In this document: piece after piece, positions 2,411 through 9,128 of the stretch | Position numbering within the stretch: position 1 is the first letter of the stretch | How the letters are laid out: each line of letters starts with the position of its first letter | Assembly: GCA_005799825.1 (NCBI GenBank) | Contig: SYFT01000034.1 | Location: 7,629-71,628 of the forward strand | DNA from: Acidobacteriota bacterium | GTDB taxonomy: Bacteria > Acidobacteriota > Vicinamibacteria > Vicinamibacterales > SCN-69-37 | Reading direction: 5' to 3' | DNA: 64,000 nt | Position numbers and translations under genes: made by a program | Notes under the pieces: generated by a model | Database searches by the model: none | What the model saw: the letters and a program-made list of their open reading frames with translations, nothing else | Told to the model about the DNA's origin: nothing

Positions 2411-3157
2411 CTACCGCCCGACCTGCAGTTCGGCTTCGGCCTTCAGGAACGCCTGATACTCGGCCTCGGATTCCACGGTGATGACCGCGCGCATGCGGTA
2501 GTGGCCCAGACCGCAGAGCTGGGAGCATGCAATATCAAACTGACCCGCCATCGTCGGTGTGAACCACACGGGTGAGAGCAGGCCGGGCGTGGCGTCCTGT
2601 TTTATGCGCATGGCGGGTATGCCGAAGCTGTGGATCATATCTTTGCTCGAGAGCTGGATAACCACTGGCTGGTTGATGGGCAGATGGAGGTCGTCGAGCG
2701 TCAACAGGTCGTCGGCGCCGTGCGCCGACGACCTGTCGAGGCCCACCGGGTTGGTCGGCGAGACCAGGCTGAGCCTGGTCTCGCCGAATCGGCCGTCGGC
2801 GCCTGGATAGTGGATGTTCCAGGCGAACTGCTCCGCCACCACGCGCACCGCGACCGCCGACGGGTCGGCGGTCGCGGGCGCGGTCGTCTGGCGGTACCAC
2901 ACCGGCAGGGCGATCACGACCAGCAGCACGCCTTCGGCCATCACCACGCCGATCTCGGTCCACTGCGCTGGCCGGCGGGGCGGGCCTTCCGCGAGGGGTG
3001 CCGGCTGGCGCCCCTCGCGGAATCGCACCAGCATCCAGACGAAGTACACGCCCCACCCCACAAACAACACCAGCATCAGCCAGTGCACCAGCGTCAGCAC
3101 CAGGTCGATCTCGCCTGCGTGCGCCGAGGCCTGCGGGGGCAGCCACCGTTCAATCAC
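2411..3157 (-). CDS. coxB: cytochrome c oxidase subunit II (CuA subunit, no fused cytochrome c)
   Basis: ORF 2411..3157. Two N-terminal TM helices are followed by a cupredoxin domain with the complete CuA ligand pattern H-x34-C-x-Q-x-C-x3-H-x2-M (HSFGIP...IACSQLCGLGHYRM). Confidence 0.92.
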   Translation of the reverse strand: MIERWLPPQASAHAGEIDLVLTLVHWLMLVLFVGWGVYFVWMLVRFREGRQPAPLAEGPPRRPAQWTEIGVVMAEGVLLVVIALPVWYRQTTAPATADPSAVAVRVVAEQFAWNIHYPGADGRFGETRLSLVSPTNPVGLDRSSAHGADDLLTLDDLHLPINQPVVIQLSSKDMIHSFGIPAMRIKQDATPGLLSPVWFTPTMAGQFDIACSQLCGLGHYRMRAVITVESEAEYQAFLKAEAELQVGR

Positions 3158-3380
3158 GGACCACCCCCACGCACGGCCGCTTCTCCCGGTTCAGCTCACC
3201 CTCGCGCTTGGCAAACAACACGACGAATCGGGCGAACGCACCGAGCACGACAGTTGTCACCCCCACGAGCACCAGCACCGCCGCCCGCACGCCGTCGGTG
3301 GTGGCGTTTTCCTTCACCTGGAAACACACAGGACACGCGAGCGCCGTCGTCGTGGCCCCCAAAACCCCCGCCACAACCAT
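3150..3380 (-). CDS. small membrane protein of the cox operon (76 aa, CPVC motif)
   Basis: Distal part of ORF 3150..3494. The first 38 codons of that ORF are only the palindromic repeat read as protein, so the start is moved to ATG 3378-3380. Hydrophobic N-terminus, CPVC, and a clear TM segment VRAAVLVLVGVTTVVLGAFARFVVLF. It overlaps the coxB start by 8 nt. Function unknown. Confidence 0.5.
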   Translation of the reverse strand: MVVAGVLGATTTALACPVCFQVKENATTDGVRAAVLVLVGVTTVVLGAFARFVVLFAKREGELNREKRPCVGVVRD

Positions 3381-3385
3381 GCCAA

Positions 3386-3440
3386 CCCAAAAGACGTCGG
3401 GTGTCTTTTTTTCCGAAAAAGACACCCGACGTCTTTTGGG
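3386..3440. repeat. nested palindromic repeat, copy A (25-nt perfect arms, 5-nt spacer); probable hairpin/terminator-type element inside the cox operon
   Basis: The left arm cccaaaagacgtcgggtgtcttttt (3386-3410) is the exact reverse complement of aaaaagacacccgacgtcttttggg (3416-3440). Each arm is itself a 7-bp-stem hairpin (AAAAGAC gtcgggt GTCTTTT). Related copies lie at 12007-12029, 47388-47452 and 60705-60780. Confidence 0.9.
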
Positions 3441-3457: not shown

Positions 3458-5668
3458 TCATGAAAGGTACAGCCCCGCGAAGATGATCAGCCACACGAGG
3501 TCGACAAAGACCCAGTAGCGCCCCAGCACCTTCAGCCGGCCCGCAGTCATGATCTCGTCGGCCGACCTTGCACCCACGATCACCCAGAGGTTCGCCAGCA
3601 GCCCGCCGAACACGTGCGCGGCGTGAATGCCGGTCAGCGTGTAAGACATCGCCATGAACGTGCTCGTCGCCGGCACGAGCCCGGTCCGCAACTCCGCACT
3701 ATATTCAAGACCCTTGATGACGAGAAACAGCACCCCGAGCGCGGACGCGACTAGCAGCCTTCCCCGCGCTGCGTCCGGCCGGCTACGCCCTGCCCGCCAG
3801 GCCACGGCGGTGAGCAGCATCAACACCATCGTGTTCGTCAGTCCGAGCTGAGTGTTGAGCAGAGTATCGCCGTCCGGCCAGTCCGTCGCCGCCACCCGCA
3901 ACAACGCGTACGACGAGAACAACGCGCCGAACAACATCACCTCGGACGCAATAAACAGCCAGAACCCCAGGTTTCCACTGCTGACGCCTGTGTCGAATCG
4001 AGCAAGATAGGGGGATGGGTGTCGACCTGTTGAAAACGCCGGGGTAGGTGGATCGAGGTACACAGGGGGACGGGTGTCGATCTGTGGAAAACTCTGGGGC
4101 AGGTGATTCTCCGATCTGCCCAGAGGTTTCCACAGATCGACACCCGTCTCCCTTTTGGGCACCGCCTTCGGCTTCCGAAGCGTCAGCACGAGGTTGACGA
4201 TGAAGAACAGCTGCACCAAGCCCAGCGCCACGGCCGCCCACGCCTGGAGCTCGTAGCTGAATTCAAATCCGGCGCTGTGGCTGTACGTCCGGCCGCCATC
4301 GAATAACCGCCGATTGAGCCCAGCCAGGCCCTGCGCGAACATCGGCATGAAGATCACGTTCATCGCCACAAGCGATCCCCAGAAGTGCCATCGACCCAGG
4401 CGCTCGTTGAGCATCCGACCCGTGACCCGCGGGAACCAATGGTAAATCCCAGCAAACAGCGCGAACAACGTGCCCGGCGCCACCAGGTAATGGAAATGGC
4501 CGATGACGTAATACGTGTCATGCAGTGGAATGTCTGACGCCGCCAGCCCCAGAGGAAGCCCCGTCAGCCCGCCAATGCCGAACATCGGCAGGAACGCGAG
4601 CGCGAACATCGAGGGCACTGTGAACGTGATCGAACCCCCGTGCAACGACAGCACCAAGGACGTTAGGATGATCACCGACGGCACCGAAATGATCATGGTC
4701 GTTACCTGGAAGAAGCCGCTCATCGTGGGACCCATGCCCGTGAGGAACATGTGATGCGCCCACACCAGAAACGACATCGATCCCATAAATAGCGAGGCGA
4801 ACACCATGCCGCGGTATCCCCACAGGGGCTTGCGGGTGCTCGTGGCGATGACTTCGGCGACGATGCCAAACGCCGGCAGTACCAAGACGTAGACCTCGGG
4901 GTGCGCGAGGAACCAGAACAGGTGCTGCCAGAGAATCGGGCTTCCGCCCCCACTGACCTCTACAATTCGTCCCGACACGACCAGTCCGCTGGGCAGGAAG
5001 AAGCTGGTGCTCGCCAGACGGTCCATCAACTGGAGGATAGAGGCGGCCTGCAACGGCGGAAACGCCAGCAACAGCAGGAATGCCGTGACCAGCTGCGACC
5101 AGATAAAAAATGGCAGCTTCATCATGGTCAGCTCCGGCGCGCGCAGCTGCAGGATAGTCACGATGATGTTGATCGAGCCGAAGAGTGACGAGACGATCAG
5201 CACGAACATGGCGACGAGCCAGGCCGTCTGTCCCGAAGTGGCGAAGATCGCAAGGGGTGGGTAGGCCGTCCAGCCCGAACTGGCCGCCCCGCCGGGCAGG
5301 AAGAAGCTGGCGAGCATCACCAGACCCGCCGCCAGGTAGAGCCAGTAGCTCCACATATTGAGGCGCGGAAACGCCATATCCGGTGCGCCGATCATGAGCG
5401 GCACCAGGTAGTTTCCGAATCCGCCCACCGCCAGCGGCACCACGGCCAGAAAGACCATGATCGTGCCGTGCATGGCCCCGAGCTGGTTGTAGAACTCGGG
5501 CAGCATCAGGCCGGCTTCGGGCCAGGCGAGTTGCCAGCGCACAAAAACGATGAGGAGGAAGCCCAGCAGCAGGAACGTCAGGCTCGTCAGGGCGTACTGC
5601 ACGCCAACGACCTTGTGATCGGTGGAAAAAATGCGCATTGGCCGCGGTGATTCTATACTGCTCGCCAT
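3458..5668 (-). CDS. ctaD: haem-copper oxidase subunit I fused to a subunit III-like domain
   Basis: ORF 3458..5698 (746 aa). Subunit I motifs are GAPDMAFPRLN, WQHLFWFLAHPEVYVLVLPAFG, WAHHMF and VIGHFHY. The C-terminal ~190 aa resemble subunit III (GFWLFIASEVMLFGALF, GIHAAHVFGG, YWVFVDLVW). The start is ambiguous: GTG 5698, ATG 5668 (GGAG about 9-10 nt upstream, chosen) or ATG 5638. Confidence 0.93.
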   Translation of the reverse strand: MASSIESPRPMRIFSTDHKVVGVQYALTSLTFLLLGFLLIVFVRWQLAWPEAGLMLPEFYNQLGAMHGTIMVFLAVVPLAVGGFGNYLVPLMIGAPDMAFPRLNMWSYWLYLAAGLVMLASFFLPGGAASSGWTAYPPLAIFATSGQTAWLVAMFVLIVSSLFGSINIIVTILQLRAPELTMMKLPFFIWSQLVTAFLLLLAFPPLQAASILQLMDRLASTSFFLPSGLVVSGRIVEVSGGGSPILWQHLFWFLAHPEVYVLVLPAFGIVAEVIATSTRKPLWGYRGMVFASLFMGSMSFLVWAHHMFLTGMGPTMSGFFQVTTMIISVPSVIILTSLVLSLHGGSITFTVPSMFALAFLPMFGIGGLTGLPLGLAASDIPLHDTYYVIGHFHYLVAPGTLFALFAGIYHWFPRVTGRMLNERLGRWHFWGSLVAMNVIFMPMFAQGLAGLNRRLFDGGRTYSHSAGFEFSYELQAWAAVALGLVQLFFIVNLVLTLRKPKAVPKRETGVDLWKPLGRSENHLPQSFPQIDTRPPVYLDPPTPAFSTGRHPSPYLARFDTGVSSGNLGFWLFIASEVMLFGALFSSYALLRVAATDWPDGDTLLNTQLGLTNTMVLMLLTAVAWRAGRSRPDAARGRLLVASALGVLFLVIKGLEYSAELRTGLVPATSTFMAMSYTLTGIHAAHVFGGLLANLWVIVGARSADEIMTAGRLKVLGRYWVFVDLVWLIIFAGLYLS
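3965..4153. repeat. cluster of about 36-nt repeat units inside the coding linker of the subunit I-III fusion
   Basis: Arms 4064-4098 and 4119-4153 are reverse complements (21 perfect bp acgggtgtcgatctgtggaaa, then one mismatch, 7 more bp, and flanking pairs including one G-T). A direct copy at 4009-4044 matches 31 of 36 nt, offset by 55 nt. A weaker inverted copy lies at 3965-3994. Confidence 0.85.
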
Positions 5669-5806
5669 GAGTCTAGCTCCGTCGGAACGCCCGGGCACCC
5701 ATCCCGACGACTCGAACCTGTCGGCTACCTACGCCCTGGTCCTCGTCGTCGAAGTCATCGTGATCCTGGGTCTTTACTGGATCGGCCGTCAGTTTGGGTA
5801 GCGCCC

Positions 5807-7547: not shown

Positions 7548-9128
7548 ATGCATGTTCGCCTGAGGTGCGCAACGCTTGTCGCGGTGGCTGTGTGTGCAGC
7601 CGTCGTTTCGGCTCAGAGGGAAACCTTCGACCTGGTAATCGTCAACGCCCGCATTGTTGACGGCACTGGCGCACCGGCTCGCGCCGGTAGCCTGGGGATT
7701 CGGAAAGGCCTGATCGCGCGCGTCGGCGGTGTGACAGCCGCGCAGGGCACACGCGTCATCGACGCGCGAGGCGAGATCGTCGCGCCTGGCTTCGTGGACG
7801 TCCATACGCACGCGGACGATCTGGCGGAGCGACCCGATGCAGCCAACTTCATCCGCATGGGCGTGACGACAATCGTCGCCGGCAATTGCGGGTCATCAGC
7901 GCTCGCCCTTGCTGAAGCGCTTCAAGCGATCACGGATGCCGGCCCTGCCGTCAATTACGCTACCCTCATCGGACACAACACCGTCCGCTCGGCGGTGATG
8001 GGCCGGGCCCAGCGGGCTCCCACCGTAGTCGAGATGCAGCGCATGAAGTCGCTGGTGTTCAAGGGCATGGCCGAAGGGGCCGTCGGGTTTTCCACCGGCC
8101 TACAGTACATCCCCGGGACGTATTCCACCGCGCATGAAGTGATCGAACTGGCGCGCGTGGCCTCCAACGACGGCGGCGTCTACGCCACCCACATGCGGAA
8201 TGAGGGCACAGCAGTGCTCGATGCCGTGCGCGAGTCAATCCATGTAGGGTCGATGCTGCGAATGCCCGTGCAGATCTCGCACCTCAAGGTGGACAGCCCC
8301 AGTCGTTGGGGTTCGAGCACCGCAGCGCTGGCTCTCATCGACGATGCTCGAGAACAAGGTGTAGACGTGGAGGCTGACCAGTACGCATACACCGCAGGCT
8401 CGTCATCACTTTCGATTCGTTTTCCGACGTGGGTGCTCGAAGGCACCAACGTCGACGTGGCTGCGCGCCTGAATGACTCGGACACCTGGACTCGGATCAA
8501 GCGCGAGATGATGCAGCTCTTGGCCGAGCGCGGGTTCGCCGATCTCTCGTGGGCGACGGTGGCCACGTATCGCGCCAACGAGACATACAACGGCCTGACG
8601 ATGAAGGCGGTGGCGCAGGCGATGTTTGGCCGTGATGGCGCGGACGATCAGCTCGAATCGGCGCGGGTTGTGATGCTCAACGGCGGTGCGTCTATGGTCT
8701 ATCACTTCATGACCGAAGACGATGTGGAGCGCATCATGCGGCATCCAATGGTGGGTATCGCATCCGACGCCGGCGTGGTGCCGTTCGGCAGCGGGGTGCC
8801 TCATCCCCGCGGAATGGGGAATACGGTGCGCGTGCTCGGGCGATACGTGCGGGAGCGGAAGGTTATTTCACTCGAAGAGGCTGTCCGCAAAATGACCTCG
8901 TTGCCTGCCCGTCAGTTCCGGTTGACTGGACGGGGTGAAATTCGCGCGGGTGCGGCGGCCGATCTAGTGATCTTCGACCCGACCCGCGTGGCGGATCTGG
9001 CCACGTTTGCGGCGCCTCATGCGTCCCCGGTGGGCATCTCTCACGTCATCGTGAATGGCGTGCCCGCAGTGCGAGGCGGCGAGGCGCTCGGAACCCGGTC
9101 TGGACAGGTCCTCAGACGGTCCTCTTGA
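7548..9128 (+). CDS. N-acyl-D-amino-acid deacylase (D-aminoacylase) family amidohydrolase, secreted
   Basis: Inner part of ORF 7458..9128. ATG 7548 gives signal peptide MHVRLRCATLVAVAVCAAVVSAQ. Family segments are DLVIVNARIVDGTG and GFVDVHTHAD (HxH metal site). It starts 8 nt after the symporter stop. Confidence 0.85.
   Translation: MHVRLRCATLVAVAVCAAVVSAQRETFDLVIVNARIVDGTGAPARAGSLGIRKGLIARVGGVTAAQGTRVIDARGEIVAPGFVDVHTHADDLAERPDAANFIRMGVTTIVAGNCGSSALALAEALQAITDAGPAVNYATLIGHNTVRSAVMGRAQRAPTVVEMQRMKSLVFKGMAEGAVGFSTGLQYIPGTYSTAHEVIELARVASNDGGVYATHMRNEGTAVLDAVRESIHVGSMLRMPVQISHLKVDSPSRWGSSTAALALIDDAREQGVDVEADQYAYTAGSSSLSIRFPTWVLEGTNVDVAARLNDSDTWTRIKREMMQLLAERGFADLSWATVATYRANETYNGLTMKAVAQAMFGRDGADDQLESARVVMLNGGASMVYHFMTEDDVERIMRHPMVGIASDAGVVPFGSGVPHPRGMGNTVRVLGRYVRERKVISLEEAVRKMTSLPARQFRLTGRGEIRAGAAADLVIFDPTRVADLATFAAPHASPVGISHVIVNGVPAVRGGEALGTRSGQVLRRSS

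Follow-up and report, generated by a model that had tools for sequence, protein, structure and literature searches.

The 64,000-nucleotide stretch of DNA analyzed here (the window; positions 7,629 to 71,628 of contig SYFT01000034.1, GenBank assembly GCA_005799825.1) comes from a soil or freshwater acidobacterium, an uncultured member of the Vicinamibacterales, and is contig C18 of a 2.93-Mb, 111-contig metagenome-assembled genome (MAG) that we refer to as G000. It carries a heme-copper oxidase gene in which ctaD (subunit I) and ctaE (subunit III) form one open reading frame (ORF), and the linker between the two domains contains arms of a dispersed palindromic repeat, which we named family A (Table 1). 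Pfam matched COX1 to residues 31-486 of this ORF (E = 4e-133) and COX3 to residues 572-744 (E = 6e-10), and its best NCBIfam matches were the CtaD/CoxA and subunit III models, with scores under the curated cut-offs. A reading of the letters alone, made before our analysis (the sequence-only reading), had claimed that this linker is encoded by DNA akin to repetitive extragenic palindromic (REP) sequences, read through as part of the ORF. Both claims are borne out, since COX1 and COX3 flank the repeats in one frame and the repeats belong to a dispersed palindromic family found at ~13 other loci in the same 2.9-Mb genome and dozens of times in other, related species.

Table 1. Features of the fused oxidase locus and of the two other in-frame family-A copies in G000 (positions are those of the window unless a contig is given)
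Feature	Position	Strand	Basis or reading
COX1+COX3 fusion ORF (ctaD-ctaE), 746 aa, uninterrupted	3458..5698	minus	ORF list and Pfam
Linker, ~residues 513-566, from the last subunit I helix to the first subunit III helix	4001..4162	minus	Element arms and flanks; translation RETGVDLWKPLGRSENHLPQSFPQIDTRPPVYLDPPTPAFSTGRHPSPY
Family-A arm 1, forward in gene	4119..4153	minus	Inverted repeat; read as ETGVDLWKPLG
Family-A arm 2, reverse in gene	4064..4098	minus	Pairs with arm 1; alternative frame, read as PQSFPQIDTRPP
Family-A arm 3, reverse in gene, diverged	4009..4043	minus	Five mismatches to arm 2; read as PAFSTGRHPSP
Claimed weak fourth copy, over the conserved DTGVSSGN start of the subunit III domain	3965..3994	minus	18/24 positions match
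Family-B inverted pair, AAAAGACGTCGGGTGTCTTTTT	3386..3440		Sequence; 18 nt after the oxidase stop codon
Oxidase subunit II gene, downstream, same operon	2411..3157	minus	NCBIfam CoxB E = 1e-36, below the curated cut-off
Family-A hairpin inside uvrC	G000:C101:21999-22086 (L085)	n/a	In frame, interdomain linker; KGTGVDLWKTPAPSDARNQKFSTDRHPSPY
Family-A hairpin inside metH	G000:C53:482-572 (L105)	n/a	In frame, between S-methyl_trans and Pterin_bind; GVADAGAGVDLWKSPGDQSPAPALEISTDRHPSPYVDPAA

Three ~32-nt arms of one repeat occupy positions 4009-4153, inside the oxidase ORF. Our repeat search recovered arms 1 and 2 as an inverted repeat with 35-nt arms that are 20 nt apart and 94% complementary, which confirms that the palindrome described by the sequence-only reading is real and lies within one uninterrupted ORF. 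Arm 1 differs from the arm-2 sequence at two positions, and arm 2 contains an 18-nt core identical to the core of the family. The third arm is 80% complementary to arm 1 and lies within a 54-nt direct repeat (3997-4050 versus 4052-4105, 81% identity). Because the 55-nt spacing of this direct repeat is not divisible by three, the two arms in the same orientation are read in different frames, as had been proposed, and are translated as SFPQIDTRPP (arm 2) and AFSTGRHPSP (arm 3). Arm 1 is read in the very frame used by every orthologous linker and by two further copies, in uvrC and metH. When we searched the window with a 21-nt core, we found three matches at no more than three mismatches, and 0/100 shuffles gave any. 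The folding energy of the linker RNA is -107.4 kcal/mol (z = -7.9 versus shuffles), and an Rfam search returned only sub-threshold matches to microRNA-precursor models, i.e., generic hairpins. The weak fourth copy that had been claimed at the start of the subunit III domain does show some match, but it is marginal and probably coincidental: a score as high is reached by ~0.8% of random 46-nt windows of the genome (p ~0.008 per window), and the match consists in part of the DTGV codons, which are conserved in element-free oxidases too.

Family A is a small, non-coding dispersed element that is restricted to a single subclade within one genus of the Vicinamibacterales (Acidobacteriota). In G000 its 18-nt core (GGGTGTCGATCTGTGGAA) is present at ~14 loci, of which almost all are inverted pairs and many are near contig ends. 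The core was found in 12/20 genomes of the genus, ~10 of which have 4 to 50 arms; the reversed control gave no hits. The consensus of 142 arms has sharp bounds (A-gGGGGACGGGTGTCGATCTGTGGAAAACTCc), with an arm start of A-gGGGGAC, unconserved outer flanks and a variable interior. An element thus delimited consists of two inverted arms of ~31-32 nt (A-GGGGGACGGGTGTCGATCTGTGGAAAACTCC) around that interior, which in some copies holds other small hairpin modules, and is 74-169 nt long as a whole. The two arms covary: at 52 positions the same departure from the consensus is present in both arms of a hairpin, versus 13.4 ± 3.0 when hairpin partners were shuffled (500 shuffles, maximum 26). We considered a classical miniature inverted-repeat transposable element, because terminal inverted repeats are present (the ~31-nt arms), and dropped this reading since direct duplications of 2-5 nt at offsets 0-3, the signature of target-site duplication, were at chance level in 62 hairpins. 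A GTAG (or CGTC) end tag is not evident in the 142-arm consensus either, GTAG being present in only a few copies. The anatomy of family A fits that of a REPIN (a REP doublet forming a hairpin) or a terminal inverted repeat (TIR) element moved by a Y1 (IS200/IS605-type) transposase. The consensus arm is free of stop codons in all six frames; the element can therefore reside in genes wherever an extra peptide is tolerated, and ~3/14 of the family-A loci in G000 do lie inside genes.

Two observations concern the other copies. On contigs C2, C53, C56, C78, and C89 of G000, a contig end is often no more than a few hundred bases away from a family-A copy. The repeat thus breaks the assembly, and this MAG probably has more copies than were counted. 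At four loci in relatives (L025, L027, L028, and L036), family-A elements are composite, with arms that enclose either a module of a second palindromic family (family B) or a third module (GAAAACGACCTCTGAGGTAGTTTT), which suggests nested insertion or modular assembly of hairpins.

Besides the oxidase, two further family-A copies in G000 lie inside long ORFs of coding-like composition, uvrC and metH. Both are located between Pfam-matched domains and are read as GxGVDLWK...STDRHPSPY. In UvrC, which displays GIY-YIG, UVR, and two UvrC RNase H domains, the element encodes the peptide EIEAKGTGVDLWKTPAPSDARNQKFSTDRHPSPYIPESP at ~residues 291-320. The uvrC copy is found in G000, G001, and G006, persists as a shortened in-frame relic in G013, and is absent from G016, G019, G004, and G002; the metH copy is found in G000, G001, G006, and G016. 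The same two sites carry family-B pairs in more distant members of the genus (uvrC in G005, G007, G008, G010, and G015; metH in G004, G007, G008, G010, G012, and G015), again in frame and encoding peptides such as KTSGVF...KDTRRL or KRHPTSF, and some genus members carry neither family at these linkers. In G016 (L112; C22, ~1532534-1532630), the metH frame shifts directly after the family-A element, within C runs; either the assembly is wrong in these homopolymers, or metH is really split where the element sits.

We then compared the ctaD/ctaE junction among relatives. Most of the more distant members of the same order have separate genes, with a subunit I that ends in NPWxATTLEW...PQ* and a subunit III that starts with M(E/D)IPYTV..RPDTG. 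Within the genus, G013 and G003 have separate genes without the element, which are in different frames and overlap by 4 nt at an ATGA stop/start; their junctions are ...REWQGRS* / MSGHAPIPYTTEPRADTGV and ...MRRPR* / MIPYTTEARQDTGV, respectively. Five species (G000, G001, G006, G004, and G017) have a single ORF with two to four family-A arms in its linker, the length of which (162, 222, 234, 153, and 150 nt, respectively) is always divisible by three. In all five, the first linker arm is read as GTGV(D/E)LW and the last as (E/A)FSTDRHPSPY, which is followed by xxRxDTGV; both arms of the G004 linker share one change. Fused proteins from independent NCBI/ENA assemblies extended this series. Four of them (P0001-P0004, the first of which is on 10 contigs) have the three-arm architecture of the window, the linkers of P0006, P0007, P0009, P0010, and P0011 are single-hairpin, duplicated, minimal, or degenerate versions, and those of P0008 and P0012-P0018 are decayed relics in which the fusion is kept. 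In the P0008 locus, which lies on a 5.8-Mb contig and whose neighboring genes match those of the window, only arm heads are left in the DNA (AGAGGACGAGTGTC...CAACACCCGTCCGCCTAT) and the long stem is gone. Fused linkers without repeat structure were seen solely as such relics and in more distant fusions, which keep the subunit III N-terminus and appear independent.

A maximum-likelihood tree built from the COX1 and COX3 domains, with the linker excluded, placed these oxidases in a 100/100 clade of 22 rows, with G013 as the first branch. All 20 fused rows in this clade carry the element or its relic, and both element-free members are unfused. When the 20 element-bearing rows were held as one clade, the likelihood was slightly above that of the free tree (approximately unbiased test, p-AU = 0.54), so that a single origin of the element-bearing oxidases is not rejected by these alignments. 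The sequence-only reading had gone one step further and supposed that an intergenic repeat cluster between separate genes drifted open and created the fusion. That route finds no counterpart among the relatives, none of which has separate ctaD and ctaE with repeats in the spacer. Since the nearest unfused relatives (G013 and G003) have no spacer at all, with their ATGA overlap and no element, there would have been no earlier intergenic cluster, and the element must have entered either the coding junction or an already fused linker. The other part of the supposition, that repeat and fusion belong together, stands in so far as the two co-occur without exception in the clade.

How would the fused protein be organized? 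An AlphaFold2 (AF2) model of the fusion displays 12 + 5 helices, and between them a coil at residues 509-573 that is the only long one and has the lowest predicted local distance difference test (pLDDT) values, 28-37, in a model of low confidence overall (mean pLDDT 54.7). In CyoB/CyoC-type oxidases, subunit I ends on the cytoplasmic side and the five-helix subunit III of the CyoC type starts there. Because both joined ends are cytoplasmic in this established topology, the linker would be a cytoplasmic tether that needs no extra helix, and it is predicted to be disordered. By-eye inspection found no Shine-Dalgarno sequence with a start codon ahead of the subunit III domain, and for this reason the fusion is most likely the only form in which the domain is made, i.e., the oxidase would be produced as a single fusion polypeptide. 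The frame has been kept through at least five linker architectures and the fusion has been retained while the hairpin decays, which suggests that the fused ORF is what selection maintains. Next to the linker, the subunit I tail motif NPWQATTLEW is absent in the window (~4150-4200); it is kept in G001, G006, G004, and G017 as well as in the more distant relatives examined. This tail was lost independently in several branches (the group of the window, P0007, the relic group, and G003), and hence it seems dispensable.

We also looked for an enzyme that might move family A. G000 has a single PF01797 gene (C15:1453-2061, 202 aa, above the Pfam cut-off), which encodes an IS200-like Y1 transposase, putatively of the REP-associated tyrosine transposase (RAYT) type. 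The gene adjoins purN (Formyl_trans_N), and the ORF on its other side resembles purM by eye. Orthologs of at least 67% identity are present in 8/9 element-bearing relatives (G001, G019, G016, G006, G017, G004, G013, and G002); no ortholog was detected in the ninth, G003, the genome of which is 85% complete. Among the element-free genomes, 0/10 has an ortholog at that level, and only paralogs of at most 54% identity are found. Inspection by eye showed, at 9/9 orthologous loci, part of a family-A arm (TAGGGGGACGGGTGT joined to GTTTTCCACAG) situated ~120 nt upstream of the transposase gene and overlapping the start of purN. In G000 (L084/L125; C15 ~1300-1345), this partial arm encodes part of the PurN N-terminus (MANAVENTPVPL). 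Family A is probably mobilized by this single-copy transposase.

Our preferred explanation, to which we assign a probability of about 0.7, is that the linker is made of the arms of a family-A mobile element and that entry of this element at the ctaD/ctaE junction gave rise to the I-III fusion. The ancestor would have had separate ctaD and ctaE genes in different frames, with an ATGA overlap, and a family-A element would have entered this coding junction. Loss of small flanks (the subunit I stop codon and the first subunit III residues), together with the inserted element, would have bridged the two frames and produced one I-III polypeptide, in which the element-encoded peptide would tether transmembrane helix 12 of subunit I flexibly, on the cytoplasmic side, to the first of the five helices of subunit III. 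The linker would afterwards have been reshaped species by species through duplications, deletions, and nested insertions that always kept the frame, and in some lineages the element would have decayed to ordinary linker sequence. At its right end the element (CCCCCTAT) is translated as PSPY, which stands, amid heavily remodeled flanks, where subunit III ancestrally had IPY, and this replacement of IPY by PSPY may reflect microhomology. We infer from these comparisons that the insertion caused the fusion, and the most parsimonious course would be a single event after the split from G013, possibly after that from G003.

Several points weigh against this explanation. 1) G003 sits in a basal polytomy of the tree and is represented by partial sequence only. 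2) The near outgroups mix separate genes with element-free fusions that keep IPYTTE (P0019, P0022-P0024, and G024), and G031, a more distant relative of the same order, is likewise fused without the element. 3) Flanking residues vary by species and the N-terminal IPYTTE of subunit III is gone, which blurs the exact insertion event. 4) Linker arms are 0-5 mismatches away from the family consensus though the oxidase proteins differ by up to 22%; arms this close to consensus despite saturated divergence between species call for ongoing homogenization (by conversion or re-insertion) or for selection on the stem. 5) As for the putative mobilizing enzyme, its best NCBIfam match, REP-associated tyrosine transposase, scored 63 bits with a cut-off of 80 bits, its co-distribution with the element is confounded by relatedness, and there is no full family-A arm within 1.5 kb of the gene at up to eight mismatches, i.e., it is not flanked by the repeat on both sides.

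The second of these points leaves room for the reverse order of events, since with element-free fused oxidases in the near outgroups the fusion could predate the insertion. A small frameshift or stop loss would then have joined ctaD and ctaE, and the element would later have colonized a permissive linker. Element-free fusions that keep IPYTTE or IPFATE do recur in P0019, P0022, P0023, P0024, G024, and G031; fused and ATGA-overlap forms are colinear and ~one indel apart, and switching between them should accordingly be easy; and the element demonstrably enters existing linkers in uvrC and metH. What tips the balance is the pattern within the 100/100 clade, where no fused gene is without element or relic and neither element-free member is fused. 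With G013 at the base, moreover, an unfused ancestor needs one change and a fused ancestor two or three, and the element-bearing linkers lack precisely the IPYTTE that element-free fusions keep. We therefore regard a fusion that preceded the element as rather unlikely, if still deserving of serious weight. Entry of the element at the junction, our preferred explanation, can also be put in a more ambitious form, in which a REPIN-type selfish element directly created the fusion by bridging the ATGA junction, the hairpin is kept intact by homogenization or selection and may tune translation or assembly, and palindromic repeats are a recurrent and specific source of fusions and linkers in the clade. 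Taken as a whole, this stronger statement appears doubtful to us.

A different question is whether the stem itself has been kept for a purpose. It might pause translation and so help subunit I enter the membrane or assemble ahead of subunit III, or it might be a site for RNase III or other processing that would set the ratio of the two. The high stability of the fold reported above, the near-consensus arms, and compensatory changes across species, e.g., in G004, are what such a function would leave behind. However, the same covariation is seen in intergenic copies genome-wide, which makes it a property of the family rather than of the oxidase locus, the number of arms varies from two to four between species, and sister lineages keep the fusion as the hairpin decays, P0008 having a relic without the long stem. 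The same element is also present in unrelated soluble enzymes, and cleavage in the linker would strand a 3' half without a start site. A functional hairpin is thus improbable, and we regard the one in the oxidase linker as tolerated baggage rather than a device, in view of the genome-wide covariation, the variable arm number, and the stemless relics. Finally, a misassembly at the repeat (a collapsed or chimeric join, or a wrong copy number) that would hide two genes in the real genome is highly improbable, because even though family-A copies often sit at contig ends of this 111-contig MAG and so do break assemblies, the assemblies of five species agree in placing an in-frame repeat linker at this position, the three-arm architecture recurs in independent assemblies from NCBI and ENA (P0001 among them), and decayed relics in long contigs such as that of P0008 keep the fusion.

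Family B, the second palindromic family, is present at the same locus. The 77 nt that separate the oxidase stop codon (3458-3460) from the next gene, which encodes a small membrane protein (ATG at 3380), are taken up by an inverted pair. At an orthologous locus (L137), which shows the same gene order with the subunit II gene downstream, the oxidase gene and the small membrane-protein gene overlap without a spacer, and on this ground the family-B pair is another insertion at a gene junction. Paralogous RAYT genes in G008, G010, and G015 (L134, L135, and L136) have inverted family-B pairs on both sides, and this is the textbook arrangement of REPs and their RAYT, seen here for family B. CGTC-type REPs have been reported to be without a dedicated transposase (PMC3733652). 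Family B contains GACGTC, and its association with a RAYT is worth noting beside that report.

These findings document how a linker between domains can come from selfish palindromic DNA, which in this respiratory enzyme probably also joined two of the subunits. At the oxidase locus, most steps of a process otherwise known mainly by inference can be seen: two overlapping genes, a linker with an intact hairpin, remodeling from two to four arms, and decay to arm heads. The linkers of uvrC, metH, and ctaD-ctaE show, in addition, that particular sites have been repeatedly colonized by two repeat families in one genus, and in-frame insertion of the REP type or of the Rickettsia palindromic element (RPE) type is extended to Acidobacteriota. 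Annotators of MAGs may mistake such linkers for frameshifts, pseudogenes, or misassemblies, and assemblies do break at the repeats.

How does family A compare with known systems? In-frame REPs and RPEs have been described, including in Uvr (excinuclease) genes, and clusters can encode up to 82 residues (PMC3733652, PMC10969869; the RPE work is that of Ogata et al. 2000 as reviewed in PMC10969869, and PMC3733652 is Di Nocera et al. 2013). The resemblance is extensive, since in both cases short dispersed palindromes, often as inverted dimers or clusters, add 20-80 in-frame residues to linkers or loops of conserved proteins, are present or absent among relatives, and recurrently choose Uvr hosts, here uvrC. 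The differences are 1) the host, a member of the Vicinamibacterales (Acidobacteriota), and another sequence family, 2) the position of the cluster exactly at the junction of formerly separate, overlapping genes, with an arrival that coincides with the fusion, and 3) a graded series among orthologs from intact hairpin to decayed linker. The words "fusion" and "fused" are absent from PMC3733652, and our literature searches on REP-mediated fusion of adjacent genes and on I-III fusions in Acidobacteria found nothing relevant, by which absence is not shown.

The REPIN-RAYT system (Bertels and Rainey 2011, PMC3116915) and TIR repeats (Di Nocera 2013) share with family A 1) inverted doublets that form a long hairpin with covarying arms and no target-site duplication, 2) tens of copies per genome with vertical inheritance in a clade, and 3) a single-copy IS200-like Y1 transposase of the same distribution. 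In contrast, the family-A transposase has one partial arm nearby, a GTAG/CGTC end tag is not evident, and no single arm is a palindrome. Most REPINs lie, by definition, outside genes, whereas 3 of the ~14 loci here are intragenic, and mobilization of family A by its transposase is putative.

Fusions of subunits I and III also have precedents. Natural heme-copper oxidases of this kind include the caa3 subunit I/III of Thermus thermophilus and SoxM of Sulfolobus, which are active, and the Escherichia coli cytochrome bo3 subunit fusions engineered by Ma, Lemieux and Gennis in 1993 reportedly remain so. As in the present oxidase, COX1 is followed by COX3 in one polypeptide with a cytoplasmic join and no extra helix. 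Their linkers, however, are ordinary ones of unknown origin, whereas here an origin from a mobile repeat is legible in the DNA. Taken together, in-frame palindromic repeats, in Uvr genes too, and subunit I-III fusions are already known, and what is new is the host phylum, the repeat family, the location exactly on a gene junction, where element and fusion always occur together within the clade, the gradation of intact hairpins into ordinary linkers, and the repeated occupation of the same sites by two families.

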